Shown piece by piece: positions 6,455-63,224 of a stretch of DNA of 64,000 nucleotides. The translations under genes were made by a program, and so were the position numbers. A model generated the notes under the pieces. It searched no databases. It had not been told where the DNA came from and worked only from the letters and a program-made list of their open reading frames with translations. The stretch lies in NCBI GenBank assembly GCA_029259745.1, contig JAJDEO010000069.1:129983-193982 (forward strand). Reading direction: 5' to 3'. Numbering within the stretch: position 1 is the stretch's first letter; every line of letters starts with the position of its first letter. The DNA is from Planctomycetota bacterium (GTDB taxonomy: Bacteria; Planctomycetota; B15-G4).

Positions 6455-6540
6455 GACTCGAGCTCCCCAAGGGCTGGACGTTGCCGACCAGGATAGCACG
6501 CATGTTGCGGCCCTTGGTTGCGCTCCAAGCGCGGCGTCGC

Positions 6541-29542: not shown

Positions 29543-30097
29543 ATGAGTGCAGGCGTGTGTGTTCTGTTGGCCGACGGCTTCGAGGAGATCGAGGCCGTGA
29601 CGATCATCGACGTGCTGAGGCGCGCCGAGCTCGACGTCACGACTGTCGGCGTGAGCGCGCGTGAGGTGCGTGGTGCGCACGGCATCGCGATCGTCGCCGA
29701 CGCGCTGCTCGAGGAGGTCGACGAGACGGCAGACTGGTCGGCCGTCATCCTGCCCGGCGGAATCCCCGGCGCGACGAATCTCCGCGACGACGTCCGCGTC
29801 CAAGCCCTCGTGAAGCGCCAGGACGCCGCCACGAAGCCCGTCGCCGCGATCTGCGCCGCACCGATCGCGCTCGAGCAAGCCGGCATCCTCGCAGGGCGCG
29901 CCGTCACGTCGTACCCGGCCTTCGCCGACCAGCTCACGAGCGCGAACTACAGCGAGGACGCCGTCGTCACCGACGGGCACATCACGACGAGCCGCGGTGT
30001 CGGTACGGCCCTCGCCTTCGCGCACCGCCTCGTCACCGAACTCAAAGACCGCACGACTGCCGACCGACTCGCCGACGCGATGCTCGTGACGCGCTGA
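29543..30097 (+). CDS. DJ-1/PfpI-family protein
   Basis: ATG 29543 preceded by ggagag. VCVLLADGFEEIEAVTIIDVLRRA ... AAICAAP (nucleophile-elbow Cys) ... GHITTSRG. Confidence 0.85.
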   Translation: MSAGVCVLLADGFEEIEAVTIIDVLRRAELDVTTVGVSAREVRGAHGIAIVADALLEEVDETADWSAVILPGGIPGATNLRDDVRVQALVKRQDAATKPVAAICAAPIALEQAGILAGRAVTSYPAFADQLTSANYSEDAVVTDGHITTSRGVGTALAFAHRLVTELKDRTTADRLADAMLVTR

Positions 30098-30123
30098 GCC
30101 CACTCCTCCCGTCGAGACCTCCG

Positions 30124-30957
30124 ATGCTCCGCTTCCTCGTCGCCCTGACTCTCACCCTCGCGATCACGCCCTCCCTCGACGCACAGAACATGCCGCCGGG
30201 CATGCACCGCTACATCTTCGGCCTCATCCGTCGCGGCCCAGCCGTGACGGAGATCACACCCGCCGAGGCGATGGACCTGCAGCGTCAGCATCTCGCGAAC
30301 ATCGAGCGGCTCGCGCGGCTGGGCAAGATCGTCGCGGCCGGGCCGTTCGAGGGTGGTGACGACTGGCGCGGGATCTTCATCTACAACGTCTCGACGAAGG
30401 CCGAGGCCCAGGCGCTCGTCGACAGCGACCCGCTCGTGAAGGCCGGACGACTCGTCGTCGACCTTGTCCCTTGGTGGGCGAGCGACGGACTGCTCGACGC
30501 CGCCGATGCGTGGATCGCGGAGAACCCAGCCGAGCCTGACGCGACGACGCCCGCGCCGACGCTGTCCGTCGAAGAGATCGCGCACACGTACCTCGATCAC
30601 TACATGGCCGGGCGCCTCGACGCGCTCGGCGAGCACCTCGCGTGGCACGCGCATTTCGAAGACCCGACGCTCGATGTCACCGGCCGCGAGGAAATCCTCG
30701 AGGCACTGCGCGGCGTCTTCGCGACGCTCACCATCGAATCCTTCGAACGCGAGCAGGTGCTCGTGTCGGCCAAGCTCGTCCTGTTCACGGGGCAGGTGCG
30801 GTTCACCCAGGCAACGGCCGACCCGAATCGATCGCTCGTCTTTGACTTGCCGATGAGCGTCGGTCTGACGATCGAGCACGGTAAAGTCGTCTCGCACGTC
30901 GACTACCTCGACGACGACGCCTACACCGCACAGCTCACGGAGCAGATGTCTCGATGA
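30124..30957 (+). CDS. secreted protein with YciI-like domain plus SnoaL/NTF2-like domain
   Basis: Signal peptide MLRFLVALTLTLAITPSLDA. YciI-like core (IERLARLGKIVAAGPF...DPLVKAGRLVVDLVPW). C-terminal NTF2-like fold. Confidence 0.6.
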   Translation: MLRFLVALTLTLAITPSLDAQNMPPGMHRYIFGLIRRGPAVTEITPAEAMDLQRQHLANIERLARLGKIVAAGPFEGGDDWRGIFIYNVSTKAEAQALVDSDPLVKAGRLVVDLVPWWASDGLLDAADAWIAENPAEPDATTPAPTLSVEEIAHTYLDHYMAGRLDALGEHLAWHAHFEDPTLDVTGREEILEALRGVFATLTIESFEREQVLVSAKLVLFTGQVRFTQATADPNRSLVFDLPMSVGLTIEHGKVVSHVDYLDDDAYTAQLTEQMSR

Positions 30958-31973
30958 ACCTCTTCCTCACCTTGGCTTCCGTGATGCTCATCACTGCGAG
31001 TCTCAGCGCTCAGACCGATCGCATCGAACTCCCCGGCGGAAATGGCGCGGCGGCGGGACTGCACGTGGTGTTCGTGTCGGGCGACGAGGAGTACCGCTCC
31101 GAGGAGGCGTTGCCGCAGCTCGCGCGGATCCTGTCGAGACACCACGGCGCGCGCAGCACGGTGCTCTTCGCGCTCGACGACGACGGCACGATCAATCCCG
31201 ACCGGCGCGACAACATCCCCGGCCTGGAAGCCCTCGAATCGGCCGACCTGATGGTGCTCTTCACGCGCTTCCGCGACCTGCCCGACGCGCAGATGAAGCA
31301 CATCGTCGACTACGTGGAATCCGGGCGGCCGATCATCGCGATCCGCACGTCCACGCACGCGTTCGCCTTCTCGAACGAGAACCCGACGTCGTATCGGCAC
31401 TGGACGTGGAACGCCGGGCAGCCCTGGTCGGGCGGCTTCGGCCGGCAGGTGCTCGGAGAAACCTGGGTGGCGCACCACGGGCATCACGGCAGCGAGGCGA
31501 CGCGCGGCGTCGTGCCGGTGGCGGCGCGGCGACATCCGATCGTGCGTGGCGTCGAAGACGTCTGGGGCCCGACGGACGTCTACGCGATCCGCGACCTCCC
31601 GCTCGACGCCACGGTGATCCTCGAAGGCTCGATCGTCGACGGCATGACGACGGACGCCGAACACGTCAACGACGCGCGCAACGCGCCCCGCATGCCCGTC
31701 GTCTGGACACGCGAGCGCGCGGTGCCGGGAATCACGGCGCCCCAGCGCGTCGTCACCTCGACGATCGGCGCCGCCACCGACTACGAGAACGAAGACCTAC
31801 GCCGCATCTTCGTCAACGCGTGCCTGTGGGCCACGAGCCGCGAGGCCAAGATCCCCGAACGCGCCAACGTCGACCTCGTCGGCACCTACGAACCCACGCA
31901 GTTCGGCTTCGGAGGCTTCGTGAAGGGCAAGCGCCCCGCGGACTACGCGCCAGCGACCAGCGGCGATCGCTGA
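30954..31973 (+). CDS. secreted ThuA-like (type-1 glutamine amidotransferase-like) protein
   Basis: ATGA start/stop overlap with the previous gene. Signal peptide MNLFLTLASVMLITASLSA. ThuA-domain pattern (LHVVFVSGDEEYRSEE...ADLMVLFTRF). Confidence 0.65.
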   Translation: MNLFLTLASVMLITASLSAQTDRIELPGGNGAAAGLHVVFVSGDEEYRSEEALPQLARILSRHHGARSTVLFALDDDGTINPDRRDNIPGLEALESADLMVLFTRFRDLPDAQMKHIVDYVESGRPIIAIRTSTHAFAFSNENPTSYRHWTWNAGQPWSGGFGRQVLGETWVAHHGHHGSEATRGVVPVAARRHPIVRGVEDVWGPTDVYAIRDLPLDATVILEGSIVDGMTTDAEHVNDARNAPRMPVVWTRERAVPGITAPQRVVTSTIGAATDYENEDLRRIFVNACLWATSREAKIPERANVDLVGTYEPTQFGFGGFVKGKRPADYAPATSGDR

Positions 31974-32075
31974 CGGCAGAGGGCAGACCCAACGTCGCCT
32001 CGGCGTTGCATGTGGCGGGCTCGGGGGCAAAACGTCGTGTCAGTTATGAACTGACCCCTCGGAGACGCTCGCATC

Positions 32076-32708
32076 ATGTGGCTCGTCCTGCTCGAAACCG
32101 GCTTTGCCATCACGCTTGTCGTGGCGGGCACCGTCCTGACCGACGTGATCCAGCCCGATGATGGTCACTGGACGTTCCGCGGGATCCTGAAGAGCGCACG
32201 TCGACGCTGGCGACGTGTCCTCATCGTCATCTCTCTGTTCCTGGCTGCCGCATGGTTCGACAGCACTCTCGCGAGTGAAGAGGCTGCGCGGGAAGAGGCT
32301 CGTGAGCGATCGCTCCTCAAGACCTTTGCAGCGCTCGCACCACCGAACGAGCCATTCGCAGCAGTATCACTCCCGGCGCTCGAAGGCGAGTGGAACGTCG
32401 ACGTCATGACCGATGGCGTCCTGGAGCAAACGGCCGACTGCAAGATCCGTCACGTGGCGGGGAGTCGCATCTTCACCCTCGAAGGCCTCGACTTTCCGTG
32501 GACGGGCACCGGCGAACTGCGTCCCGAAGGTGAGGGTGTGTCCATCCGCCTGAACTTCGATGATGGGTATGACCAGGGGACAGCGGCCACGTCCGCGCCG
32601 GTGGACAGCGGTGCCCTGTCCGTCTTCACGCTCGACTATGTCGACGCGCCGAACAGCCAAGACGTCACCCGCGGCTACCTCATGTTCACCCGACGCAACG
32701 GTGCCTGA
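32076..32708 (+). CDS. hypothetical membrane protein
   Basis: Two predicted TM helices; moderate GC3; regional GC is lower than the surroundings. Confidence 0.45.
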   Translation: MWLVLLETGFAITLVVAGTVLTDVIQPDDGHWTFRGILKSARRRWRRVLIVISLFLAAAWFDSTLASEEAAREEARERSLLKTFAALAPPNEPFAAVSLPALEGEWNVDVMTDGVLEQTADCKIRHVAGSRIFTLEGLDFPWTGTGELRPEGEGVSIRLNFDDGYDQGTAATSAPVDSGALSVFTLDYVDAPNSQDVTRGYLMFTRRNGA

Positions 32709-32730
32709 TGAGCGCCGGCTCGACGAGCGC

Positions 32731-32855
32731 GACGTTCTCGACCGTGCTCGCGTAGGGATTGATCTGGACCGAAGCCGTTGCGTCGTCTTCGGCGAGGACG
32801 CGGCCCGACACGACAGTGCCGTCAGTCAGAACGAAGATGTCGCTCGCGAAGCGTC
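32731..32855. repeat. diverged duplicate (~88% identity over ~125 nt) of the 3' coding end of the giant gene at 35899..36020
   Basis: Read by eye: cgtgctcgcgtagggattgatctg...gcgtcgtcttcggcg.ggacgcggcccgacacgac...acgaagat.tcgctcgcg occurs at both sites. On the minus strand, copy A encodes ...SDIFVLTDGTVVSGRVLAEDDATASVQINPYASTVENV, matching the giant protein's ...SEIFVLKDGSVVSGRVRAEDDATASVQINPYASTIEEV. Confidence 0.6.
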
Positions 32856-33019
32856 GTTGGTTCGACTTCGTAACGGACGAGTCAACCTTCGCACGCGCCG
32901 CTGAGCCGCGGGCATTCCTACGTCAATCGTTGTCGCGAACTTGAGGTGTGTCCGCTTCCCCTGATGAGTGGGCACCACAACGGCGCTCGCCACACACCCC
33001 CACAAGTTAGGGATACATC

Positions 33020-33580
33020 ATGCGCATCTTGACTCTGAGCCTGCTCTTGCTAATGGGCAGCGTCCCGCCGCTATCCGTTGCCGCACAAGACACCAGCGAA
33101 CAAACGTCCGCCGGGCGCGCTGCAATCGGATACGTACACCTGAACCCTCGCCGCACGACGTTTGAGGAGGATGTCCTCGGCGTCGACCACGTTGTCTATG
33201 GCGTCGTGAAGGCCGTGCATGACACCCGCCGTAACGACTTCCCATTCAAGCAGTACGACGTGCATGTCTTGCGTGACGATGAGGGTGACGGAGACCACGT
33301 CATCAGTGTCATTGTGCCGGGGTCGCGTGACGCGACACCACCGATCGTCGTCGTTGGTGCCCCGACCTTCGGAGTTGGCGACGAACTCGTCCTGCTGCTG
33401 GATGACCTCGACGAGAGTCAGCATCACATCGTGCGTTCGGCCTCGAGCGGCGCCTACCGCGCCACGGGTCCCGAACGCGCGGTTCTCGGTCGCGGTGCCG
33501 GTGCCAATGAACCCGCCTGGTCATTCTTCCTGCGCCTGACCGCGATGCGCACCCAGGCGGCCACGCAGCTCCCCCGCTGA
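33020..33580 (+). CDS. secreted hypothetical protein
   Basis: Signal peptide MRILTLSLLLLMGSVPPLSVAA. ~60% GC, lower than the window average. Confidence 0.55.
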   Translation: MRILTLSLLLLMGSVPPLSVAAQDTSEQTSAGRAAIGYVHLNPRRTTFEEDVLGVDHVVYGVVKAVHDTRRNDFPFKQYDVHVLRDDEGDGDHVISVIVPGSRDATPPIVVVGAPTFGVGDELVLLLDDLDESQHHIVRSASSGAYRATGPERAVLGRGAGANEPAWSFFLRLTAMRTQAATQLPR

Positions 33581-33608
33581 GCAGCCCAAGACAAGCCAAC
33601 CCTTCGAC

Positions 33609-35516
33609 ATGAGAACCATCATGAACACCCGAACCCCGTTCTTCGCCCTCGCCGCCGGAATCGCCCTGGGAGCGCAAGCTCTTGCGGGTGGGCCCGAGAT
33701 GCAATGTGATGGCACACCCGTGATCTGGGGCATCGCTCCCGGAACTACGATCCAGTGGAGCATCGCGCGCACGATGGTGAGCGCGACCGAGTGCACCGTC
33801 GTGCCAGGTTTCGCCTGCACGCCGTGCAGTACGGGCGCCGGCGCGCGCCCAGGAACCTGGAGCATGGTGCGGGCGGCCCGCCAATGGACGCGTGCTACGC
33901 ATCCGTGGCTGCCAGCAACAGCCGGCGCGAGCAACGTGTCATTCATGCAACTCGACGACCCGTTCACGAGTTACGTCTCGACGTCTCCGGGAAGCAACCT
34001 GGTCGTCAACGATGGTACGAACGTCGTGACGTGCTTCCAGAGTGACAGCTACTGGGACGGCCTCGGCGATCCCTTCGGCATCACGGTCACCTGGCTGGAT
34101 GCGAGCAATCAGATCATCGAAGCCGACATGGCGCTCAATGCGATCGACGATGACGACAGCGTCGTGCTGCTCGAAGAGAACAACTACACGGGCCTCACGT
34201 ACGTCAACCAGAACCCCCCGACGGGCCGATTGGTCGATCTGCGAGGACTCGTCACGCACGAACTCGGACACTTCCTCGGGCTCTCGCACTCGCTCGTCGA
34301 ATCCCAGCGCAACGCACTTGGATCCGACCAGCCCACGATGTTCCCGATCGCTGACGGCGCGCCGTTCACCGGCACTGTGACCGCACCCACGGGTAGTGGC
34401 TGTTCGACCACGACACTCAGTCTTTCCGACCGGGTGCTCTTTGCGCGCGCGTCAACGTCGGTCGAACTCGACGACATCATCGCCCTCGCGACTGCCTATC
34501 CGAAGCCGGTCTTCTCGGCGGCCCTCGGATCCATCGAAGGCACCGTATTGGACCAAGATGACAGCGGCATCGAGTCGCGCCTTCAGGCGGCACATGTCGT
34601 GGCCATCGCCGTGAACGACCCGACGACACGTGTCGGAACGTACATCACTCCGAACGATGGCACGTACACGATCCGCGGCCTCCGCGCGGGCGACTACCAC
34701 GTGATGATCGAACCGATCGAGACGGGCGCCACGCCCTATGCCGGCATCATCTCGTCCATCCCGAGCGACACCTTCGTCTACGCGCCGACGTTCCTCGATG
34801 GAGACCTTCCCACGATCTACCAAGGCCAGTCGAGCTGCCCGGACGCGAACGACCCGCCACCTGCGTTCGCCGTCTTCAACGCCGAGATGCACAGCACGGC
34901 CGACACCGGCCCGAGCGAGTGTGAAGCAGATCAGATGTATTCATCCGCCATCTCTGTGAGCAACAACAGCACGACGAACTGCCGTTTCCTGGTTGCGCGA
35001 GGCTCGACGCCAGGACTGCCGGGGACCGGCACGGCCTGCCAGACCTTCCCACTCCTCCGGACGGAGAACCCCTCTGGTCTTTGGGTCGGACTTGCTAACG
35101 AAGTCAACGGCACAACACTTCCGGGAGCCACGTTGTCTCCTCACGGCATCGGATACGGAGATCTCGCGCAAGACTTCACGACGACGTTCCTCGTCGCGGC
35201 CGGCGGCACCACGAGCAGCGGTAACGACCTCGCTCCGTACTCCGGGCCGGTGACGCTGCGCTTGTCGACAGAACTCGACCTGAACGTGCGTGCCGACGGG
35301 CGTGTCGAACTCATCGACAATGGCTTGGCCTTCACGACCACGGGGACGATCCCGTCGACGAATCCGCGGATCGCCCGCTTCGACTTCCTCTCGAGTGAGT
35401 TCCCGCCCACGCAACTCGGGGTGACGAACTTCGTCGACATCTTCGCGCAAGCCGAGTTCGGTGACATGCTGACGAACATCGTCGTCATTCGCATGAACAT
35501 CGAGAACCCGAACTGA
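33609..35516 (+). CDS. secreted metzincin-type zinc metalloprotease (HExxHxxGxxH; matrixin/M10-like) with large C-terminal domains
   Basis: Signal peptide (MNTRTPFFALAAGIALGAQALA). VTHELGHFLGLSHS zinc-binding motif. ~60% GC. Confidence 0.8.
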   Translation: MRTIMNTRTPFFALAAGIALGAQALAGGPEMQCDGTPVIWGIAPGTTIQWSIARTMVSATECTVVPGFACTPCSTGAGARPGTWSMVRAARQWTRATHPWLPATAGASNVSFMQLDDPFTSYVSTSPGSNLVVNDGTNVVTCFQSDSYWDGLGDPFGITVTWLDASNQIIEADMALNAIDDDDSVVLLEENNYTGLTYVNQNPPTGRLVDLRGLVTHELGHFLGLSHSLVESQRNALGSDQPTMFPIADGAPFTGTVTAPTGSGCSTTTLSLSDRVLFARASTSVELDDIIALATAYPKPVFSAALGSIEGTVLDQDDSGIESRLQAAHVVAIAVNDPTTRVGTYITPNDGTYTIRGLRAGDYHVMIEPIETGATPYAGIISSIPSDTFVYAPTFLDGDLPTIYQGQSSCPDANDPPPAFAVFNAEMHSTADTGPSECEADQMYSSAISVSNNSTTNCRFLVARGSTPGLPGTGTACQTFPLLRTENPSGLWVGLANEVNGTTLPGATLSPHGIGYGDLAQDFTTTFLVAAGGTTSSGNDLAPYSGPVTLRLSTELDLNVRADGRVELIDNGLAFTTTGTIPSTNPRIARFDFLSSEFPPTQLGVTNFVDIFAQAEFGDMLTNIVVIRMNIENPN

Positions 35517-35532
35517 GGCGACGCTAGCACTC

Positions 35533-35569
35533 GCGCCCCCGTCACACATCACGTGTGTGACGGGGGCGC
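35533..35569. terminator. perfect 16-bp GC-rich hairpin (5-nt loop) between convergent genes; candidate bidirectional terminator
   Basis: gcgcccccgtcacaca-tcacg-tgtgtgacgggggcgc. 17 nt after the metzincin stop and ~200 nt beyond the giant-gene stop on the other strand. No T-run. Confidence 0.45.
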
Positions 35570-35772
35570 CCACGCATCCACGCACACTTCCGGGAGTCGT
35601 CGGCATCGTCGCGGTGTCGCCTTGGGTCGGCTCGCCTCGTCGAAGGCGAACCGGAGCGTTGGTCGTTGCTGCGCCGAGCTGCATGAGCAGGTCACGAGTG
35701 ACCTGGCATGGGAAGACCACCGTGCCGCTTGCCCACGTCTCGAGTTCATTCGCACGCCTCACTCTCGCGCAC

Positions 35773-38700
35773 TCACTTCCTCTGCGCGGCGAGGTAGGCC
35801 AGCAGGTCGGCGATCTCTTCGCGGGTGAACGTCGAGAGCAGGCCTTCGGGCATCGCCGAGACCTGCGACGTCCAGCGGTCGTCGACGTCGGCCACGGCGA
35901 CCTCTTCGATCGTGCTCGCGTAGGGATTGATCTGCACGGAGGCCGTGGCGTCGTCTTCGGCGCGGACGCGGCCCGACACGACGCTGCCGTCCTTCAGGAC
36001 GAAGATCTCGCTCGCGTAGCCCGCGGCGATCTCGGCGCTCGGGTCGAGGAGCTGCGCGAGGAGGTCTTCGTTGCTCGTCCAGCGCGCGACGCCGGCTTCG
36101 ATCGCCGGGCCCGTCTCGCCGCCCGCGCCGTCGACCGCGTGACAGAGGGTGCACGAGGCATCGACGAAGACATCGCGGCCGCGCTCGACCGAACTGCTCG
36201 GCACGTCGTCGAGGATCGGACGCAACTCGTCGAGCGTCCACTCGGCGACGAAGACACGCTCGCAGTTCTCGGCCATGACGGAGGCCTCGGCCGCGGCGAC
36301 CGCATCGACGACATCGAGAGCCGCATCGCCGGGTGCGACGACACGCAACGTGCCGTTCATGCGCGTCCAGTGGCCGGGGACCGTGCAGACGAAGGGATAG
36401 TTGCCCGGCGCGCTCGGCGCATCGAAGCTGAGAGTCTGCGATTGGCCTGACGACAGCAGTCCCGTCGCGACGATCACGTCGGGGACGTCGGGGACGAAGG
36501 CCCGCTCCCAGGCGTCGGGCTCGGCCGCCATGGCTTCGGCCGCGCGCCCCACGCGCGCAAGTGCACCCGGGGCCGTGACGACGAGGTTGTGCGGCATGAT
36601 GTCCGTGTTGTCGAAGACGAGTTCGATCGGACGACCCGCGGCGACGACGAGTTCGGTGCGGTCGAAGAGCAGCGCGTCGTGCACGGGACGCACGAGGAAC
36701 ACCTGCGGTCCGAGCGTGCGACGAAGGCGCCTGAATCCGTCGACGACGCCCGATGACATGCGCGGGATCCACTCGTCGGCGAAGGCCAGCACGCTGCGGC
36801 CCGTCGGCGTCATCCAGTAGCTCTCGGGCTTCGCGACGGCGAGCGTCTCGAAGAGCCCGCGCTCGAGCTCCTCGCGGTTGGCGTCCGACCATCGCTCGGC
36901 GTCGATCCCGCGCAGAGCGGCTACGACATCGGCGCGCAGCTCGTCGTCGCGCAGGCGATCCACGAGTGTCGTGATCGTCACCGGGACGCGCACGTCGAGC
37001 GCCCCCAAGGCGCGGACGGCCGCACGACGCAGCGTGAGGCGCGGCGGCTCGAGCGTCCATGACATCGTGGGCCCGAGCTGCCCGTCGTGTTGGTACGCGG
37101 CGACAGCTCGACGCTGACCGTCGAGGACATCGATGACGACGTCGTCGAGGCGGCGACCGTATGGGCCGTCGGTGCGATTCCAGAGCGCGATGCGATCGAT
37201 GCGTTGCGTCGCGCCGAGGTCGAGCTCCCACCATGGGTTCGGCTGGTCCTCGAGCGTGTGCGTCTGCGCGCCGTCCAACCATGCGCCGCTCGTGATGCCG
37301 TCCAGTGCATTGCTCGGCACGCCGCCCCAGTTCGTCGACGACTGCGTCGCGCTTCCCGCCGGCGCGACGTTCGTGCCGGCCGCGAACACCTGCACCTCGG
37401 CCAGCGTCAGCGTGCGCTGATCGCCCGCGAGAGACACACGCACGTAGCGGCCGGCCACGGCGTTCGCGTCGCCGAGTTGCGTCGCGAGCGCGGGCGGCGG
37501 GCCGTCGAGCAACGCAGCGACGCGATCGTAGACCGTCGCTCGCGGGGACATCTTCGTCGTGTAGGCCAAGGCGTCGAGGAACTCGGTGAGGGCCCCGGCC
37601 GACGTGAGCCCCGTGCTCCAAGCCGACTCGATGTCATCACTGGCGTCGATCGCTGCCGCCGTGGCGAGGCGGCGCGTCGAGCGGCGCTGTCCCTCGCGCG
37701 CGAGGCGCGTCAGGGCAACCGCAGAAGCGCCCGCATCGACGTCACGCAGCGTCGCGAAGAGGTCGGACAGCAGGTGATCGGCGTGACTCGACGCCTCGTC
37801 CTCGCGATCCGCCGTGTCGATCGCAGCGAGCAACACCTCCACCACCGACTCGCCGCGCGCGTCGGCGAGGCGCTCTGCCGCGGCGCGATACGTCACGATG
37901 TCGAGGCCGTGGCGCGTGAGCCGCTCGGCGTCCGCGACCACGCTCGGCGCGACGCGCGCGAGTTCATCCGTCGTCAGCATCGACAGCAGGTGCGCCAGGC
38001 CCGTCGGATCGTCGGCGCAAAGCACCTCGCCGCTCGCGAGGGCCGAACGCCACGGGACGTCGAGGGTCACGAGTGTTTGGTGCAGCGCATCCTCGAGGAA
38101 GGCGTCCATCGGCTGGGACAGAACCGACACCGCGGCCTCGGCCGCCCCCGCCGTCGGCACGAAGCTCAGCCCCACCACGGCCTCGCAGCGCACGCGCGGA
38201 TCGACATCACGAGCAGCCTTCGCGAGCAGCTCCGGCGCGTCATCGATCAGGCGCCGCATGTGACGCACCGCGCGCACGGCCGCTGCGCGCGCTCGGGAGT
38301 CGCGCGCGTCGAGCAAGCGCAGCAACAGCGGACGATCGACAACCGTCTGACCCTGCTGAACCCAGAGCGCCTCGAGCAGGTGGTGCTCGTGCTCGGGGTC
38401 GTTCGCATCGAGCGACTCGACCCAACGACGGGCCGCAACCACGACGTCGACCGTCGCGCGTCCACTGAGCTCGATGCGCGTGCGGTAGCGCACGCGATCT
38501 TCCGGCGTCCTCAGGTTCTCGAACAGCACGTCGAGCGGTTGGTCGGCAATCGGCACGGGGTCGAGCAGCGGACGTCCATCGGCCACCACGCGGTAGATAC
38601 GGCCGTGCAGACGATCGCGGCTCGGGTCGCGCAAGTGATGTTGCATGTGCCCGATGATCGCGTTGTGCCAGTCGGCGACGTAGAGCGCGCCGTCGGGACC

Positions 38701-40695
38701 CACCTCGAGATCGACCGGCCGGAAGTTCAGGTCGTCGCTGAAGAGGATCGGTTCGATCTCGTCGGCGCCGAAGCCGGCCCCGTCGTCGCGCAGCTGGTAC
38801 TGGAAGATGCCGCGGAAGCCGATGACGTTCGCGATGAGGTACGTGTCGCGGAAGGCCGTCGGCATGTGTCGACTCGACAGGATCTCCGTGGCCGCGGCCG
38901 GGCGACTACGCTGCGGGAAGAACGGTCGGCCGCGCGTGCGCTTGGCCGGGAAGATCGCGTGCCCACTCAGCGGCCCGACGACGTAGTTCTGGTTGCCCGT
39001 CCCATCGGTGACGAAGTCCTGTCCCCAGCGATCGAAAACGTGACCGTGCGGGTTCGCGAAGTTGAACGGCATGTAGCGTTCGACGTGCCAGGTCCGCGGA
39101 TCGAAGCGCCACACACACGCGTTGTTGTTGCGCACGACGCCGTGGACGGTCTCGATCTGTGAGTGGTGGAAGACGCCTTCCTGGAAGTAGAGCGCGCCGT
39201 CGGGGCCGAGCACGAACGAGTTGGCGCCGTGATGCGTGTCGGCGCTGGAGAGACCGTGCAGCACGCGCGTGCGCTCTTCGATGCTCGCACGCCCATCACC
39301 GTCTTGGTCCTTCAAGAAGAACAGGTCGGGCGCCGTGGCCACGAAGACACCGCCGTTCCAGAACTCGATCCCCGTCGGGTTGTGGAGACCTTCGGCGAAC
39401 GGAATGCACGTGTCGGCGCGTCCATCGCCGTCGTGGTCTTCGAGCACGAGGATCGCGTCGAGACCCTGGCCGATCGACGCACCGCCGACGTCCGCGGGCA
39501 ATCCGTGCGGGTACGTCGACCAGACCGCCACCCAGAGTCGCCCGCGCGTGTCGAACGCCATCTGCACGGGGTTGACGAACTCGGGGAACATCGACTCGTC
39601 GGCGAACAGCTCGACACGCAGCCCGCGCGCCGGCGTCATGTCCTCGAGCGCGTCCGTGCCGTCGCGGTAGACGTGCTCGCCGTCGGGTCCGTCACCGGGG
39701 CGATTCGTCTTCACCGGGATCACCGGAGGGACCTCGACCTCGGCCAGCTCCTGGACGACGGCGATGAAGTCTTCCGCCTTGCCGGCCGCCACGAGCCACA
39801 TGTAGCGATCGGCACGCGCGACGTGGGCATCGAGCACATCGAGCTCCCGCTGAAGCACCTCGTAGTTCGTGACGCCGTCGTACTCGAGCGACGAGCGTCC
39901 GCCGTAGACGTTGTAGCCATCGGTCGCGCGATAGCGGTTGAACCACATCGCGTTCTTCAGCCGCACGGCCATGCGCAGCTCGCCATATCGGTCGGACGTC
40001 GGCTGAGGCGTGCCGGCCCCTTCGATCCGCGTGAACAGCGCCTCGGTGAGGAGGCGATGACCGCGCTCGTTGAGGTGGATGCCGTTGATCGTGGTGTGGT
40101 CGGCGGCCGCGAAGTCGTCCGCGAGAAGCGCGGCGAGATCGACGAACGGCAGGCCGCGCTCGTCGGCGAGGGTGTGCATCGCGCGGTTGAAGGGCGCGAG
40201 GCGCGTCGTGTGGTCGAGCGCCGTCGGCACCAGCGGGCTTTCAGCGTCCTCGGCGGCACAGGGGCCGACGAGCAGCACGCGACGCGTCGGAACGCCGTCG
40301 TCGTCCGCGGCCTCGAGCATCGTCAGCCACGTCGCCAAGTCACGCCGGAAGTCGGCGGGCGAGCCCTCGAAACTCTCCGCGAACCCCACGAACGCCAGCA
40401 CGACCGACGCACCGACGCGTCGCAGCCACTCCTCCTGGGAGCCGAAGCCGTCTGTGCGCTGACCGCCGCGCACGCCGTCACCCGAGAAGCCGAGATTGCG
40501 CAGCGACAGACGATGCTCGGGGAACGCCCGATGCAACGCCGTCTCGAACTGTCCGTCGTGTTGCATGCGCTCGGCGAGCGCGTTGCCGACGATCGCGATC
40601 CGATCCCCCGGCTGCAGCACGAGCCGCGCCTCGTCGGGTTCGGCAGCCACGAGCGGGACAAGACACGACAACAGCACGAGCGACAGACGAAGCAT
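35773..40695 (-). CDS. giant multidomain PVC-type protein: SGNH/GDSL-like hydrolase, putative membrane-bound dehydrogenase beta-propeller, HEAT repeats, F5/8 type C (discoidin), cupredoxin-like, C-terminal CxxCH cytochrome c domain
   Basis: Listed ORF 35773..41874 is fused upstream to an R-rich wrong-frame stretch. True start is ATG 40695 (MLRLSLVLLSCLVPLVAA signal). Motifs: IAIVGNALAE...RNLGFSGDG; NPTGIEF..HGANSF (propeller); PRVRCEAVVGLSF (HEAT); RYVRVSLAGDQRTLTLAEVQVF...WWELDL (discoidin); MPHNLVV...FVCTVPGHW (cupredoxin); CTLCHAVDG (heme c). Architecture matches Pirellula/Verrucomicrobium-type heme-binding proteins. Confidence 0.8.
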   Translation of the reverse strand: MLRLSLVLLSCLVPLVAAEPDEARLVLQPGDRIAIVGNALAERMQHDGQFETALHRAFPEHRLSLRNLGFSGDGVRGGQRTDGFGSQEEWLRRVGASVVLAFVGFAESFEGSPADFRRDLATWLTMLEAADDDGVPTRRVLLVGPCAAEDAESPLVPTALDHTTRLAPFNRAMHTLADERGLPFVDLAALLADDFAAADHTTINGIHLNERGHRLLTEALFTRIEGAGTPQPTSDRYGELRMAVRLKNAMWFNRYRATDGYNVYGGRSSLEYDGVTNYEVLQRELDVLDAHVARADRYMWLVAAGKAEDFIAVVQELAEVEVPPVIPVKTNRPGDGPDGEHVYRDGTDALEDMTPARGLRVELFADESMFPEFVNPVQMAFDTRGRLWVAVWSTYPHGLPADVGGASIGQGLDAILVLEDHDGDGRADTCIPFAEGLHNPTGIEFWNGGVFVATAPDLFFLKDQDGDGRASIEERTRVLHGLSSADTHHGANSFVLGPDGALYFQEGVFHHSQIETVHGVVRNNNACVWRFDPRTWHVERYMPFNFANPHGHVFDRWGQDFVTDGTGNQNYVVGPLSGHAIFPAKRTRGRPFFPQRSRPAAATEILSSRHMPTAFRDTYLIANVIGFRGIFQYQLRDDGAGFGADEIEPILFSDDLNFRPVDLEVGPDGALYVADWHNAIIGHMQHHLRDPSRDRLHGRIYRVVADGRPLLDPVPIADQPLDVLFENLRTPEDRVRYRTRIELSGRATVDVVVAARRWVESLDANDPEHEHHLLEALWVQQGQTVVDRPLLLRLLDARDSRARAAAVRAVRHMRRLIDDAPELLAKAARDVDPRVRCEAVVGLSFVPTAGAAEAAVSVLSQPMDAFLEDALHQTLVTLDVPWRSALASGEVLCADDPTGLAHLLSMLTTDELARVAPSVVADAERLTRHGLDIVTYRAAAERLADARGESVVEVLLAAIDTADREDEASSHADHLLSDLFATLRDVDAGASAVALTRLAREGQRRSTRRLATAAAIDASDDIESAWSTGLTSAGALTEFLDALAYTTKMSPRATVYDRVAALLDGPPPALATQLGDANAVAGRYVRVSLAGDQRTLTLAEVQVFAAGTNVAPAGSATQSSTNWGGVPSNALDGITSGAWLDGAQTHTLEDQPNPWWELDLGATQRIDRIALWNRTDGPYGRRLDDVVIDVLDGQRRAVAAYQHDGQLGPTMSWTLEPPRLTLRRAAVRALGALDVRVPVTITTLVDRLRDDELRADVVAALRGIDAERWSDANREELERGLFETLAVAKPESYWMTPTGRSVLAFADEWIPRMSSGVVDGFRRLRRTLGPQVFLVRPVHDALLFDRTELVVAAGRPIELVFDNTDIMPHNLVVTAPGALARVGRAAEAMAAEPDAWERAFVPDVPDVIVATGLLSSGQSQTLSFDAPSAPGNYPFVCTVPGHWTRMNGTLRVVAPGDAALDVVDAVAAAEASVMAENCERVFVAEWTLDELRPILDDVPSSSVERGRDVFVDASCTLCHAVDGAGGETGPAIEAGVARWTSNEDLLAQLLDPSAEIAAGYASEIFVLKDGSVVSGRVRAEDDATASVQINPYASTIEEVAVADVDDRWTSQVSAMPEGLLSTFTREEIADLLAYLAAQRK

Positions 40696-40820
40696 CGGCG
40701 CGACCTCGAGTGGAGAGGTCGACCACCTTAGCAGCCGGTTGAAGGACTGCTTCGGATGGGATGGGCGTGCCGGTTGGTTCTGGTCGTGCGCGGAAGATCG
40801 CCGCGGCTTGCCCCGACGCG

Positions 40821-41939
40821 TCAGCCGAAGCGCACGCTGTGGATCGGCGGCAGGTGCGCCGAGATGTGCGTCCAATGGTCGCCCTGGTCTTCGCTCACCC
40901 ACAGCGAACCCGTGGTGCTTCCGAAGGCGAGCACGTCGCCGCTCGCATCGATGTCGAAGGCGTGGCGGAAGACGAGATCGTAGGCGTGCTGCTGCGGCAA
41001 GCCGTTCGTGAGGACGTCGAAGCTCTTGCCGCCGTCGCGCGTGCGCGTGACGACGACCTTGCCGTCCTTCGGATAGCGGGCCTCGTCCTTGACCGCCGGG
41101 ATGAACCAGGCCGTATCGGGGTCGCGCGGATGGACGACGACGGGGAAGCCGAACGTCGACGGGCCGGCCTCGGCGACCTCGTTCCACGAAGCGCAGTCGT
41201 CGGTGGTCTTGAAGATTCCGTTGTGGTGCTGCGCCCAGAACACGTCGGGCGCCGACGGGCTCTGCACGACGCAGTGCGGGTCTTGGGTGTTCGGGTCGCC
41301 GGCGAGTTCGGGCGGCATGTACTCGGCGCGCATCCCGTCGGCGCGCAGCTCCCAGCTCGTGCCGCCGTCGCGCGTCTGCCAGACACCGCCGCACGAGACC
41401 CCCAGCGTGACACGGTCGGCGTCGTCGGGATGCACGCAGACGGAGTGGATGCCGGGCCAGTCGGCGCCGCCGCCGAACCACCCGGGACGCAGCTCGTGGT
41501 ACCAGAGCGACTGGACGAGTTGCCACGTGTCGCCGCGGTCGTCGCTGCGGAAGAGGCCACCGGGGATCGTCCCGCACCAGAGCGTGCCCGGTTGCGCGGG
41601 GCCGCCTGGCGCGAGCGCCCAGATCTTCTTCAACGACCATGGAACCGGGCGCGCGTTGTTCTCGGTTGGCTCGGGCTCGGCGTCTTCGGGCTTGGGCGGG
41701 TAGATGGGCACGCCGACCTCCTCGAACGTGGCGCCACCGTCGGACGAGCGCTGCACCTTGACGCCGAAGTGTCCGTGATCGAGGGCGGCGTAGACGTCGC
41801 GCCCTTCGGTGCGCACATCCGACATCGCGAGCGAGACGTTGTCGCCCAGCATCGCGACGTCCGACACGCCCCACCCGTCGCTCCCGCGCGTCACCGTGAA
41901 CAGGCCCTTACGCGAGCCGACGAGAATCCGTGCTGTCAT
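40821..41939 (-). CDS. BNR/Ycf48-like beta-propeller protein (sialidase-fold glycosyl-hydrolase-like)
   Basis: ATG 41939 (MTARILVGSRKGLFTVTRGSDGW...). Repeated SxDxGxTW BNR motifs (SSDGGATFE, SDDRGDTWQ, TRDGGTSWE, TRDGGKSFD, SEDQGDHWT). Confidence 0.75.
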   Translation of the reverse strand: MTARILVGSRKGLFTVTRGSDGWGVSDVAMLGDNVSLAMSDVRTEGRDVYAALDHGHFGVKVQRSSDGGATFEEVGVPIYPPKPEDAEPEPTENNARPVPWSLKKIWALAPGGPAQPGTLWCGTIPGGLFRSDDRGDTWQLVQSLWYHELRPGWFGGGADWPGIHSVCVHPDDADRVTLGVSCGGVWQTRDGGTSWELRADGMRAEYMPPELAGDPNTQDPHCVVQSPSAPDVFWAQHHNGIFKTTDDCASWNEVAEAGPSTFGFPVVVHPRDPDTAWFIPAVKDEARYPKDGKVVVTRTRDGGKSFDVLTNGLPQQHAYDLVFRHAFDIDASGDVLAFGSTTGSLWVSEDQGDHWTHISAHLPPIHSVRFG

Positions 41940-45513: not shown

Positions 45514-45704
45514 CGCGGCGGGTCCGCCCGGGCTCCTCGGCGCGTCTTCTGGCACCGCGTCTCGCGGTCCTGCAGGTTGGCCCGGCGACCTCGCGACGCC
45601 CCCCGTGAATCATCCGGGCCTAGTGGTCCCCGCGCCAACCGTGCATGATGCGTCTCGGCTGCCTCCCGGCAGCGCTCGCCCCTTCACACGTCCAGAGTCC
45701 AGCG

Positions 45705-46031
45705 ATGTTCATCGGCCAGGTCGTCGGCACCGTGGTGTCCACGATGAAAGACGAGAAGGTCTGCGATCTGCGGCTGCAGATCGTGCGCCAGCTCGACGAG
45801 AACAACGAGGCGCGCGGCGGGTACGTCGTGGCGGCCGATGCGATCGGCGCCGGGCACGGCGACCTCGTGCTCTACGCGCAGGGGTCGAGCGCGCGTCAAA
45901 CCGAGCTCACCGATGGCCGCCCCATCGACGCGGCGATCTTCGCTGTCGTCGACTCTTGGGACGTCGACGGGAAAGTCGTCTATCAGAAGGAAGGTCTCGA
46001 GTCGATCGGCGTCGAGCCGGCCGAGGTCTGA
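45705..46031 (+). CDS. BMC vertex protein, EutN/CcmL/PduN family (BMC-P), paralog 1
   Basis: MFIGQVVGTVVSTMKDEKVCDLRLQIVRQLDE...GAGHGDLVLYAQGSSARQ...DAAIFAVVDSWDV is the canonical PF03319 pattern. Confidence 0.85.
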   Translation: MFIGQVVGTVVSTMKDEKVCDLRLQIVRQLDENNEARGGYVVAADAIGAGHGDLVLYAQGSSARQTELTDGRPIDAAIFAVVDSWDVDGKVVYQKEGLESIGVEPAEV

Positions 46032-47417: not shown

Positions 47418-48189
47418 CGCCCTGCTCTTGCAGCTCGACTCCCGCGAACACGATGTCCGTCACGTTCGCCATGAGAAGCCGATCGACGACCTTGACGACT
47501 TCGGGATAGGTCAGCCCCTCACCGACATCGAGGACGACCCTGTGGCCTTGCCATGCCTCGGAAGCAGATCGCGCGTGCTCACCGAACGCCGCCAGATCGA
47601 GCACGGCGCCGTCCGGCATGGCGACGGTCGGCCCGGGACGCAAGCCAAGCGTCAGCTTCGGTCCGACAGCCGCATTGACCCCGACATCCTTCGGGAGCTT
47701 CGTCTCGAGCTTCGCCTCAAGCTGCTTGTACTTCGTCAGCGACATGTCCGCCATCTCCAGGAGGCTGAGATCCTCCCCAGCCGCTGGCGTGACCCGCGTG
47801 GCGAGCTGCGTGCGGAGCTGCGGGACGAACGCGAGGACGCCGTCGTTCTCGACGATCGGGACGATGACGCTCCAGCCATGAGCGAAGTCCGCGATGACCG
47901 TCAGCTCGTCCTGCTCGCGGATGCTGAGCGGCGGCTCTGAGAGGTCAACGTCCTCGACGGCCTCGAGACACGTCTCGTAGACCACGTCGACATGCTCGTT
48001 GCCCACGCATGGAAGCGCCGCGAAGGCCAGACGATCCTCGTCAGCGAGTGCCTCGAGCAGCGCAGACGCGAGATCCACCCGTGGTCCCGAGCTGCTGTCG
48101 ACAGGTATGGGGGCAACCCCCGACAGGAACGCGACGAAAAGGACGGCGAGAACGCCGAGGACGCCGAGGACCACCAAGAGCGATTTCAT
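47407..48189 (-). CDS. hypothetical secreted/membrane-anchored protein
   Basis: ATG 48189 (MKSLLVVLGVLGVLAVLFVAFLSG). Listed ORF 47407..48987 is extended upstream by wrong-frame R-rich sequence antisense to the aldolase. Confidence 0.55.
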   Translation of the reverse strand: MKSLLVVLGVLGVLAVLFVAFLSGVAPIPVDSSSGPRVDLASALLEALADEDRLAFAALPCVGNEHVDVVYETCLEAVEDVDLSEPPLSIREQDELTVIADFAHGWSVIVPIVENDGVLAFVPQLRTQLATRVTPAAGEDLSLLEMADMSLTKYKQLEAKLETKLPKDVGVNAAVGPKLTLGLRPGPTVAMPDGAVLDLAAFGEHARSASEAWQGHRVVLDVGEGLTYPEVVKVVDRLLMANVTDIVFAGVELQEQGDGD

Positions 48190-48267
48190 GCGCCCCATCG
48201 TACCGCGGAGCCCCGCAGCCACACCTGCCCCCTTCCCTCGCGCGGGCTCTCGCGCAATCATGGCGGA

Positions 48268-49140
48268 ATGCAGATGTCGCACGATGATCCCACTCCCGAC
48301 GTCAACGACATCCCGGCCGTCGGCTGTGGACGTCCTGTCGTCGATCCCAAGCTCGTCGGTACGCCGATCGGTGCCACGCCCTACAGCGCGCCCGAGTCGC
48401 CGCCCGAACGCCGCGGCGTGCTCACGCAGGCCGGCATCGCCGACAAGGACGCCCTCGCGAAGCAGATCTGCGACGTGATGCGGCTCATGTATCAGAACGA
48501 GTTCGTCGTCGCGAACGACGGCAACGTCTCGTGCCGCCTGCCGAACGGCAACATCCTCATCACGGCCTCGGGCGTCCTGAAGGGTTTCATGACGCCCGAC
48601 CAGGTCATCGAATGCGACCCACAAGGACGCGCGCTCGACGGCCGTAAGGTCACCACCGAGATCCGCATGCACGTCGACGCGTACAACGTGCGGCCCGACG
48701 TGCGCGCCATCGTGCACGGGCATCCGATCTACGCCGTCGCGTTCTCGCTCGCGGGTATCTCGCTCGCGATGTGCGCGATCCCCGAGATCATCGTCACCAT
48801 GGGCACGATCCCGACGGCGCCCTACGCCACGCCGGGCACCGACGACCTGCCCGACGCCCTCGCGCCGTACCTCTCGAAGGGCGACGCGGTGATCATGGAG
48901 CGCCACGGCGTCATCTGCCTCGGCACCGACCTCTTCGACGCGTACAAGAAGATGGAGATGGTCGAGCACACGGCGAAGATCACGCATGCCGCGCGGACGA
49001 TCGGCGAGGTGCGCCCGATCGCGCCCGAAGGCGTCCAGCGTCTGCTCGAGAGTCGCAAGGAGCTCGGCTTCACGATGAAGAACAACCTCTGCGACGGCTG
49101 CGGCGCGCGCGAAGTCTGCGCGTCACCGCTCTACCCGTAG
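48268..49140 (+). CDS. class II aldolase/adducin-family protein (fuculose/rhamnulose-1-phosphate aldolase-like) with N- and C-terminal extensions
   Basis: ATG 48268 or 48274. Aldolase core (VANDGNVSCRL...ITASGV...HGHPIYAVAF...VIMERHGVICLG). ~55-aa N-terminal extension and a ~22-aa Cys-containing C-terminal tail (NNLCDGCGAREVCASPLYP). Confidence 0.8.
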   Translation: MQMSHDDPTPDVNDIPAVGCGRPVVDPKLVGTPIGATPYSAPESPPERRGVLTQAGIADKDALAKQICDVMRLMYQNEFVVANDGNVSCRLPNGNILITASGVLKGFMTPDQVIECDPQGRALDGRKVTTEIRMHVDAYNVRPDVRAIVHGHPIYAVAFSLAGISLAMCAIPEIIVTMGTIPTAPYATPGTDDLPDALAPYLSKGDAVIMERHGVICLGTDLFDAYKKMEMVEHTAKITHAARTIGEVRPIAPEGVQRLLESRKELGFTMKNNLCDGCGAREVCASPLYP

Positions 49141-56650: not shown

Positions 56651-58312
56651 TCAAGGCACGGTGGCCGTGAGTCCGTTGCTGGCCGAGGCGCCGAACGGGA
56701 TCGACGCATCGATCACCCACCACTGGAAGACGAAGTCGGAGCCCGAGGGCGCGCCCGCTGGCCAGGTCCCGAGAAGTTCGAGCTTCTCGAACGCGAACAC
56801 AGTGCTGAAGATGTCCACGAAATCGGGGCTCGGCACGAGCACGCCGCCCTTGTACGGCGCGTTGATCTGCGAGCCGCCTATGACGAGCGCGGCCACACCG
56901 TTGGCGAGCGCTTCGGGAAGCGCGTTAGAGATCGAGATCCGGAAGTCGGAGCCGGGGACGAGCGTGCCGCCGCCGTCGAACACGTGCGCACCCGAGGAAC
57001 CCGGGTGACCGAGGCCGCGGTCGATCCAGAGGGCCTCGTTGAGCGACGTCACCCAGATCGATCCCGTCTGCGGTGGGTTGATGAAGTCGTTGTCGTTCGA
57101 GGCACCGATGACAAGCTCGGAGCGTCCGTCTCCGTCGAAGTCGGTCGACGCGAGGCTCGCCCCGAAGAACGCGTCTGTCGTCAGCGTGCCCTCGAACGTT
57201 CCCGCTGTGTCGCTGATCTTCTGGTGACCGTTGACCGTACCGTCAGGCTCGAGAAACAAGACCCAAGCTGCACCGTGATTCGAGCCTCCGTCATCATCGA
57301 AGACAGCCCCGACAGCGAGCTCCGCGACGCCGTTTCCGTCGCGGTCGGGAATCGCGGTCAGCGCGGACCCGAAGCGGTCGCCGGCCTTCAGCGCGCCTTC
57401 GAAGCCTCCGTCGCCGAGTGCGATGCGCTCGGCATCCCGCACCGTGCCGTTGCCGTTCAGGAAGACGATCCAGACCTCGCCGCGCAAACTGTCCGCCGTG
57501 TTCGCGCCGACAGCGATGTCGACGACGCCGTCTCCGTCGACGTCACCGATGTTGGCCACGGCGACGCCGAAGTTGAAGGCAGGCGAGACGGGCAGTCCAC
57601 CGACGCCGTCCGCGATACGCACCGAGTTCTTCACGGTGCCGTCCGCCTTCATGAACAAGATCCAGACCGCGCCCGTGCCGTCCTTCCATGCGCCGATCGC
57701 GATGTCGTTGACGCCGTCGCCATCGAGATCACCGAGCGCTGTCGCCGAACGGCCGAAGCGTCCGCCGGGGCTGAGCTGCCCCGCCATGCCGCCGCTCGAG
57801 TTCCCGATCACGACGGAACTCTTCACTGTGCCGTCAGCGTTGAGGAACAGCGTGAAGACCTCGCCCGTCGCGTTGTCACCGAAGTTGCTCCCCGCGACGA
57901 GATCGAGCACGCCGTCACCGTCGAGGTCACCGACGTCGACGACGCTGGAACCAAAGCGATCGAACGGGGCCACGGGACCGACGAAGCCACCCTCCGAGGC
58001 CGAGATCTTCTGTTCGGCGCGGACGCTGCCGTCGGCGTTCATGAACAGGATCCAGAGCGCGCCGGTGAACGTGCCGCCGTCATCATCGAGGTTCGCGCCC
58101 ACGGCCAGGTCGTGCACGCCGTCCCCGTCGAGATCACCGAGTCGCGCCGACGAGAAACCGAACGAATCGACCACATCGAGCGAGCCGCCGAAGCCGCCGA
58201 GACCCGCGCTGATCTCGACCTCGCCCGTCACGACGCTCGGCGTCTGCGCCACAGCTCCGACGCTCAGCGCCACCAGGGCAACGCCGAGAATGCACACATC
58301 TGCCGTCAGGGT
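56651..58312 (-). CDS. secreted FG-GAP/VCBS-repeat protein with the conserved ~95-aa C-terminal module
   Basis: True start MGRTLTADVCILGVALVALSVGAVAQ. Listed ORF 56651..58819 has a wrong-frame N-extension. Repeats LGDLDGDGVHDLAVGA / VGDLDGDGVLDLVAG / LGDLDGDGVNDIAIGA / IGDVDGDGVVDIAVGA. C-terminal module homologous to 3992..6454 and 16779..17249. Start coordinate is +/-1 uncertain. Confidence 0.7.
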   Translation of the reverse strand, partial: TLTADVCILGVALVALSVGAVAQTPSVVTGEVEISAGLGGFGGSLDVVDSFGFSSARLGDLDGDGVHDLAVGANLDDDGGTFTGALWILFMNADGSVRAEQKISASEGGFVGPVAPFDRFGSSVVDVGDLDGDGVLDLVAGSNFGDNATGEVFTLFLNADGTVKSSVVIGNSSGGMAGQLSPGGRFGRSATALGDLDGDGVNDIAIGAWKDGTGAVWILFMKADGTVKNSVRIADGVGGLPVSPAFNFGVAVANIGDVDGDGVVDIAVGANTADSLRGEVWIVFLNGNGTVRDAERIALGDGGFEGALKAGDRFGSALTAIPDRDGNGVAELAVGAVFDDDGGSNHGAAWVLFLEPDGTVNGHQKISDTAGTFEGTLTTDAFFGASLASTDFDGDGRSELVIGASNDNDFINPPQTGSIWVTSLNEALWIDRGLGHPGSSGAHVFDGGGTLVPGSDFRISISNALPEALANGVAALVIGGSQINAPYKGGVLVPSPDFVDIFSTVFAFEKLELLGTWPAGAPSGSDFVFQWWVIDASIPFGASASNGLTATVP

Positions 58313-58421
58313 TCTTCCCATTCTCTCTCTCCTCGTCTCGATCTCTTGGTCATGCCGCATGGGCGGAGAAAGGCTCAACGCCACCAACGCGCGAAGCGGA
58401 CGGACCCGTCTCGGAAAAGAT

Positions 58422-62794: not shown

Positions 62795-62927
62795 CGTCCA
62801 ACTCCCCTCTGCGACACGAACCTCGACACCCGACGCAAGCCCCATCGTAGTGGACGTACGCGAGGCGTGCCCTGGTAGCATCCGCTCTCCGCTTTCATCC
62901 CCACGAATCCATTTCCACGAGCCTTCC

Positions 62928-63224
62928 ATGAAGATGTTCCTCCGCCGCGCCGCCCTGGCCGCGCTCCTTGCCACCTCGTTCACGTCCTGCATCTACCAGA
63001 ACATCGTGATCCCGCTCGACACCGATCTCGACGTCACCGAACTCGGGACAAAGACGGGCGAATCGACGATGCGCACGTACTTCTGGGTCGTGCAGGTCGG
63101 CGATGCCGGTGTGCAGGCCGCCGCGCGCAATGGCCAGATCTCCGTGCTGCGCCATGCCGATCAGAAGCGCTTCAACGTGCTCAGCGTCTACCAAGAGTGT
63201 TCGACCATCGTTTATGGAGACTGA
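62928..63224 (+). CDS. TRL-domain-like small lipoprotein
   Basis: ATG 62928. Signal/lipobox MKMFLRRAALAALLATSFTSC. GDAGVQAAARNGQISVLRHADQ...NVLSVYQECSTIVYGD matches the TRL (tRNA-associated-locus) lipoprotein family pattern. Confidence 0.6.
   Translation: MKMFLRRAALAALLATSFTSCIYQNIVIPLDTDLDVTELGTKTGESTMRTYFWVVQVGDAGVQAAARNGQISVLRHADQKRFNVLSVYQECSTIVYGD

Follow-up and report, generated by a model that had tools for sequence, protein, structure and literature searches.

Direct repeats beside inserted DNA are left by several described processes. Transposons produce target-site duplications, which are short (usually 2-15 bp), initially identical and directly abut the ends of the element. Illegitimate recombination leaves gene remnants and templated duplications: a gene is copied in part, over a short length and in direct orientation, to a site a few kb distant, with one sharp breakpoint and without coding potential or a recombinase. 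Where an integrase inserts an element into a coding gene, in its 3' part (e14 and phage 21 in icd of E. coli), the element brings a substitute 3' end, and the displaced original 3' end persists at the far end of the element as a diverged pseudo-copy; the one that e14 leaves in just this manner is a pseudo-icd' copy of 163 bp (PMC6379469). The locus described here lies in a 64,000-nucleotide (nt) stretch of contig JAJDEO010000069.1 from a Planctomycetota bacterium (the window, numbered from its first letter), and has a diverged direct repeat beside a group of low-GC genes, one of which encodes a secreted protease of the metzincin type; one copy of the repeat is part of a giant gene for a heme-binding protein, the other a truncated duplicate of that part. 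The low-GC region is probably a lineage-specific, composite insertion, acquired horizontally, which carries the truncated copy within it as a non-functional pseudogene relic; this copy is neither a transposon target-site duplication nor an attachment site.

The junction of the ThuA-like and giant genes

The region is enclosed by two convergent genes, one for a ThuA-like protein and the other for the giant heme-binding protein, and comprises the following features:

30954..31973, plus strand: ThuA-like gene (Pfam ThuA), the ancestral convergent neighbor of the giant gene
31974..35772, no strand: probable lineage-specific insertion of 3,799 nt, bounded by the stops of the convergent ThuA-like and giant genes
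32076..32708, plus strand: o210, an ORFan without a family match, its N-terminus bearing two hydrophobic segments
32719..32852, minus strand: left copy of the repeat, a pseudogene fragment with 44 codons of the heme-binding domain of the giant gene (from tblastn and blastn)
33020..33580, plus strand: o186, a small secreted protein and first gene of a two-gene module, with homologs upstream of metzincins
33609..35516, plus strand: secreted metzincin resembling matrix metalloproteinases (MMPs), 635 amino acids (aa), with a transthyretin-like (CarboxypepD_reg) domain
35533..35569, no strand: hairpin with a perfect, GC-rich stem of 16-17 bp, 17 nt after the metzincin stop
35688..35705, no strand: palindrome CAGGTCAC-GA-GTGACCTG, which on the minus strand follows the stop of the giant gene by ~70-85 nt
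35773..35886, minus strand: last 37 codons and stop of the giant gene, unduplicated and collinear with orthologs to the last residues
35887..36020, minus strand: right copy of the repeat, codons 1542-1585 of the intact giant gene, within its TIGR02603 domain
35773..40641, minus strand: giant gene, for a PVC-type heme-binding CxxCH protein of 1,622 aa (Pfam and NCBIfam)

Both flanking genes are intact to their final residues in the window, where 3,799 nt separate them. Orthologs of the giant gene were sought with the full protein in representative genomes and with its C-terminus in JGI metagenome contigs, which yielded eight related loci with full-length or C-terminal orthologs at 48-53% aa identity. 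In seven of the eight, a ThuA ortholog (53-64% identical to 30954-31973) converges on the giant ortholog, and the two stops are only 4-16 nt apart in five of them (L002, 14 nt; L005, 16 nt; L008, 10 nt; L009, 9 nt; L012, 4 nt), with 67 nt in L004 and 336 nt in L011. Since the convergent pair is conserved with so small a spacer, a functional link between the two proteins suggests itself. Homologs of o210, o186 and the metzincin are absent from all eight loci, and no duplicated C-terminal fragment of the giant gene occurs in the related loci. The insertion is thus missing from the orthologous site in seven of the eight, though the comparators are distant (48-53% aa identity). The eighth locus, L010, carries a different insert of 3,153 nt at the same junction (L010 1129-4281), in which ECF-type sigma-70 domains precede CarboxypepD_reg repeats, all within what is read as a single open reading frame (ORF) of 999 aa; the junction has thus been struck independently at least twice.

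Composition also marks out the region. At 33020-35516 the GC content is 63.3%, where the window averages 68.0% (standard deviation 1.7, over 2.5-kb segments) and the giant gene has 69.4%; at about -2.8 standard deviations, this is the lowest-GC 2.5-kb segment of the 64 kb. A preliminary description of the locus had seen this drop in GC, but overstated it (~60% against ~70%). The low GC reaches left to ~32000, taking in the ORF at 32076-32708 and the left copy of the repeat, and the whole of 31974-35772 has 63.5%. For both dinucleotide and tetranucleotide deviation, 31974-35772 ranks first of 121 overlapping 3.8-kb segments, with a dinucleotide relative-abundance distance delta* of 87 (against 43.6 +/- 13.7) and a tetranucleotide distance of 26.9 (against 13.6 +/- 2.6). 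The GC content of third codon positions (GC3) is 0.75 in o210, 0.74 in o186 and 0.79 in the metzincin gene, against 0.82-0.93 in most genes of the window, and the order GC3 > GC1 > GC2, which is the coding pattern, holds in each of the three ORFs. Atypical composition relative to the host, as looked for in small genomic islets, is therefore present. The empty site, the extreme composition and the occurrence of the o186-metzincin module elsewhere (see below) support what the preliminary description had proposed, a horizontally acquired insertion near the giant gene's 3' end; none of the observations that it had named as fatal to this proposal (a repeat below 70% identity or shorter than 50 nt, a GC content within variance, or relatives with the same genes and no repeat) was made.

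The region is unable to move itself. Among all the genes called in the 64 kb, none has an integrase, recombinase or transposase domain (with Pfam among the searches); the absence of integrases and transposases had been noted before. No tRNA, no Rfam family and, at the insertion, no terminal inverted repeats were found; searches against plasmids, phages, viral contigs, PHROGs and PADLOC (defence) returned no relatives; the outer edges of the insertion have a single 8-mer in common, against 0.8 expected by chance; and a scan for promoter and terminator consensus sequences gave nothing relevant.

The two copies of the repeat

A blastn comparison (word size 7) of the stretch between the two genes with the window pairs 32729-32852 with 35897-36020 at 87.1% identity over 124 nt, ungapped (E 2.5e-38); nowhere else in the 64 kb does the 3.8-kb stretch have a significant duplicate. 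The direct repeat of ~125 nt and ~88% identity that had drawn attention to the locus is thus real, its left coordinates having been ~3 nt off at the right end. A repeat finder extends the pair to 32720-32852 and 35888-36020 (133 nt, 85%), and in tblastn residues 1542-1585 of the giant protein match the minus strand at 32850-32719, with 34 of 44 residues identical (E 1e-14); the peptide encoded by the left copy is FASDIFVLTDGTVVSGRVLAEDDATASVQINPYASTVENVALVE. In all frames of tblastn, similarity stops at both sides of the 44-codon match, homology being confined to 124-132 nt; a tblastx self-comparison of the stretch returned only noise, where blastn gave a clean result. The edge of the fragment at 32850/32851 is sharp, identity falling from 9/10 to 3/10, and the opposite edge fades across 32719-32738. 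The longest identical runs between the copies (24, 19 and 15 nt) are as expected of any pair that is 87% identical.

The right copy had been taken for the 3' end of the giant gene, which it is not: it lies downstream of the CTLCH motif and upstream of the final 37 codons, so that it ends 37 codons before the stop and leaves 35773-35886 unduplicated. The left copy covers 44 codons of a 134-residue domain. Truncated at either end, it has no CxxCH motif, no start codon and none of the 37 C-terminal residues, and reads on into 10 unrelated codons, followed by a stop. Partial, truncated and motif-less, it is a pseudogene fragment, presumably a relic without function. It is set within the insertion, away from the edge, with 745 nt, mostly o210, between it and the ThuA-like gene, and the stop of o210 is 12 nt from its fading edge. 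The right copy is parted from the cargo by the 114 nt of unduplicated coding tail and a further 203 nt. A transposon target-site duplication was considered and is rejected: the repeat is 124-132 nt long and 84-87% identical, it does not abut the cargo, and there is no transposase. The target duplication on either side of the insertion that the preliminary description had assumed is accordingly given up here, the left copy being an internal domain piece within a wider insertion, 13-16% diverged from its counterpart and with a synonymous divergence (dS) of ~0.37.

In 132 nt, the copies show 21 differences, distributed 3/5/13 over the codon positions, and no insertions or deletions (indels). At 13-16% divergence, they are clearly old or from diverged sources; a staggered cut of recent date would have left them identical. 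Between them, the nonsynonymous divergence (dN) is 0.126 and dS 0.366, giving a dN/dS of 0.34 with a bootstrap interval of 0.12-1.03, which covers both the ~0.55 expected if one copy was neutral throughout beside a constrained one and the ~0.1-0.2 expected if both were mostly constrained. When the differences are polarized with distant outgroups (~50% identical), ~3 aa changes are assigned to the fragment and 2-3 to the giant protein, too few to decide. Identity to the heme domain does not exceed 54% in its nearest database homologs, whose differences fall at exactly the positions on which both copies agree (AEDDATASVQINPYAS against QEGDVLLVQDDPYRD); the fragment thus has its origin in this lineage and not in a distant donor. 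Its source may be an in-situ copy of the adjacent gene or the remnant of a second homolog, both compatible with the data; the relic of a rearranged paralog, which had been offered as an alternative to an inserted cassette, therefore stays as one of two possible origins of the fragment.

Searches of genomes, metagenomes and 5.8 billion proteins returned no relative of the giant gene closer than about 53-54% aa identity; in the word-indexed search of the 5.8 billion proteins, the C-terminal 299 aa of the giant did not return the giant itself, and such negatives are weak for the long proteins of this genome. The 54-aa fragment peptide had zero word-sharing candidates in the word-indexed protein search, which is weak evidence against a closer paralog.

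Cargo and neighboring genes

The best-characterized part of the cargo is the metzincin. It carries the zinc-binding motif HExxHxxGxxH, already recognized in the preliminary description, as HELGHFLGLSH at residues 217-227 (34257-34289), nearly invariant in 25 family members, and a candidate Met-turn, PTMF, in which P242 is invariant and M244 conserved in at least 90% of the same 25; it has the predicted catalytic fold of a metzincin. Pfam Peptidase_M10 (PF00413) matches its zinc helix only, at 19.4 bits (below the cut-off of 24), with weak M10 matches in 9 of the 25 family members, and a sequence search against the PDB found no match. A word-indexed search had made the protein look like an orphan; a HMMER scan of 1.84 billion representatives finds 302 relatives at E<=1e-3, of which 75 reach E<=1e-10; identity is 33-40% for the best of them, and the usual length is ~600 aa. 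An alternative start at 33621 yields a protein of 631 aa, and this is the recorded form, traced only to a 7-kb Logan contig. N-terminal segments that resemble signal peptides are visible in the ORFs of both the metzincin and o186.

In four further loci, homologs of o186 (184-205 aa) lie directly upstream of metzincin homologs, often overlapping them; they are related at a pairwise E of 1e-11 and have the motifs GAPxFxxGE and GxYR in common. The module occupies the following positions:

window, 33020-35516
L025, 4349-6935
L026, 4360-7058
L028, 4450-6800
L029, 4402-6797

The neighborhoods of L025, L026, L028 and L029 are all unrelated to each other, as is typical of the patchy cargo of islets, and the recurrent pairing in them identifies o186 and the metzincin as a conserved two-gene module of patchy distribution; none of the four has direct repeats flanking the module. 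For o186, single-sequence structure prediction gave a pLDDT (predicted local distance difference test) of 38, which is unusable, and there is no functional hint for this partner protein. The module was most likely acquired horizontally, to judge from its sporadic occurrence in other bacteria. The pair, conserved and uncharacterized, is a by-product of the analysis: a secreted protein of ~190 aa is joined by an MMP-like metzincin of ~600 aa, and representative clusters number at least 75 at E<=1e-10.

The remaining cargo gene, o210, has no family match and no homolog in any fetched locus, nor in the four that bear the module. A small inverted repeat seen by eye (GTCAGTT-ATG-AACTGAC, 32039-32055), after the stop of the ThuA-like gene and ahead of o210, may be a terminator or operator. 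The perfect hairpin after the metzincin gene is present as first described, at 35533-35569 and with a stem of 16-17 bp; the 91-nt region around it folds at -47.8 kcal/mol (z -5.1), and it probably terminates or insulates the convergent transcripts. The palindrome at 35688-35705 is perfect and unique in the window, and may be the terminator stem of the giant gene itself.

The giant protein scores 214 bits with TIGR02604 (cut-off 122) and 94 bits with TIGR02603 (cut-off 68), contains CTLCH as its heme-binding motif, and has further SGNH, DUF7133, HEAT, F5/8-C, cupredoxin and cytochrome c domains. The protein begins in reality at the ATG at 40641, with the signal peptide MLRLSLVLLSCLVPLVAAEP, and orthologs align from residues 6-9; the 2,033-aa ORF listed for this locus (35773-41874, minus strand) is overextended by 411 arginine-rich nonsense codons, of a kind typical of high-GC DNA.

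Elsewhere in the window, an EutN/CcmL pentamer-type shell protein (45624-46031, plus strand) lies near a class II aldolase (47941-49140, plus strand), and the two may belong to a bacterial microcompartment locus of the planctomycete type. Two large, tandem CarboxypepD_reg-repeat proteins (58422-62992 and 56651-58846, both minus strand) adjoin an FG-GAP repeat protein, and a second FG-GAP protein (3992-6838, minus strand) lies in a stretch of somewhat low GC (~64-65%).

Origin of the insertion and known systems

The most plausible course of events starts from an ancestrally nearly gapless convergent junction of the ThuA-like and giant genes, which the insertion at 31974-35772 would have entered. 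Its cargo consists of o210 as an ORFan membrane protein, the module of o186 and the metzincin, the hairpin and, between o210 and the module, the dead fragment. The insertion would have been assembled by non-homologous (illegitimate) or duplicative rearrangements, of which the fragment would be a scar. Whichever model is taken, o210 and the module appear to have arrived separately, in at least two events, because a fragment from the 3' region of the gene should precede the last 37 codons and then the ThuA-like gene, and o210 follows instead. Several points weigh against this account. The order of events and the mechanism are ones that we infer; the insertion is polarized solely by distant comparators and by composition, so that loss in the other lineages is formally possible; the dN/dS interval fits neutral decay, past constraint or function alike; the topology of copy, module, gene tail and copy resembles a repeat-bounded cassette; and with only 64 kb of the genome in view, a closer paralog elsewhere could be the source of the fragment.

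The fragment could, instead of a scar, be what is left of a once-complete second copy of the giant gene, either a tandem paralog or an allelic copy from a close relative, which lay between the ThuA-like gene and the giant gene and was lost to deletion or overwriting by o210 on one side and by the module on the other, until 44 codons remained. This is unlikely, but deserves some weight. The bias of the differences towards third positions (3/5/13) speaks for it, as does the dN/dS of 0.34, below the ~0.55 expected with one copy neutral throughout, although the interval around this value takes in the expectation for neutral decay. In addition, the fragment retains family-consensus residues at several sites where the giant protein has changed, for example L19 and L42, and L002 has a second, distant paralog nearby, so that paralogy does occur in the family; yet no relative has a close tandem paralog at this junction, and no further trace of a second copy is seen in any frame. 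The scenario also needs a duplication of 4.9 kb, at least two deletions and two insertions.

Integration by an integrase into the 3' part of the giant gene, as in icd, with subsequent loss of the integrase, we consider very unlikely. In this case the present 3' end of the giant gene would be the substitute brought by the element, and the left copy the displaced original. The pseudo-icd' copy of e14 is a direct precedent, diverged direct repeats do bracket the module together with the gene tail, and the single sharp edge at 32850/51 is of the kind found at a crossover boundary, with a 24-nt identical run in the repeat. A displaced copy should, however, reach the stop and abut the ThuA-like gene, and this one ends 37 codons short and lies 745 nt and o210 away. 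The tail that the giant gene has now is of native composition, with a GC3 of at least 0.9; there is no integrase or recombinase anywhere in the 64 kb; and the module occurs without repeats in four other loci and has no relatives among phages, plasmids or viral contigs.

Two more far-reaching proposals fall together as highly improbable: that the region is a non-autonomous, repeat-bounded cassette moved in trans by a recombinase that targets the TIGR02603 domain's coding sequence and, as it integrates the unit, restores the 3' end of the gene, or that it contains a 124-nt antisense regulator which links the protease operon to the giant gene. If the former were true, the unit would run from the left copy through the promoter region, o186, the metzincin, the hairpin and the gene tail to the right copy.

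That the fragment has been kept for any function, be it as an antisense RNA segment (87% complementary over 124 nt) coupling the protease operon and the giant gene or as a substrate for recombination, is hardly credible. The left copy does precede o186 by 170 nt, on a strand that is antisense to the giant gene, and has acquired no indels in 132 nt despite 16% substitutions. No relative carries it, however, and conservation thus lends no support; the RNA structure of the intergenic region is unremarkable (z -1.1), with no Rfam match and no promoter-like site; and the giant gene would be truncated if the two copies recombined.

An assembly chimera, in which foreign low-GC DNA was joined at the repeat during metagenome assembly, is almost certainly not the explanation, even though the source seems to be a metagenome-derived genome and the region is a compositional outlier, for 87% identity is too diverged for an assembler mis-join, both flanking genes are intact, and a contig of the independent Logan assembly of SRR15505515, covering 29584-36615, runs through the two junctions and the two copies, its 7,032 nt containing 1 mismatch.

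The composite insertion with an embedded relic thus stays the probable explanation, and it can be set beside the described systems. The closest named precedent is that of e14 and phage 21 in icd, where, as here, the gene is intact and a diverged direct copy of 120-165 nt from its 3' coding part lies beyond the inserted DNA (PMC6379469). Three defining features of that system fail in the present locus: there is no integrase, the copy ends 37 codons short of the stop, and it does not abut the ancestral flank. The cargo, too, is not phage-like. Gene remnants of illegitimate recombination are a further parallel for the fragment, the difference being that its age (dS ~0.37) and the lack of intermediates bar a reconstruction of the breakpoints, with no microhomology assignable. 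Among proteases, the metzincin resembles the matrixin-like (MMP/M10) and bacterial metzincins in its HExxHxxGxxH motif and in the conserved PTMF as candidate Met-turn, and differs from them by an uncharacterized architecture of ~600 aa, in which a transthyretin-like domain is joined by a beta-rich region at the C-terminus, and by its constant pairing with a secreted protein of ~190 aa.

The insertion as a whole is most like the small genomic islets, which, too, are absent from the corresponding site of relatives, are of atypical composition, carry ORFan or patchy cargo and have neither integrase nor tRNA nor terminal repeats; another insertion at the same junction, in the L010 lineage, adds to the likeness. 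From most small islets it differs by the embedded fragment of a neighboring gene, which also makes it a caution for genome scans, as a long, diverged direct repeat beside low-GC genes can be a relic within an insertion and not its boundary. The locus would thus represent no new kind of mobile element, but ordinary genome evolution: a small acquired insertion of the textbook type, with the scar of a gene remnant.

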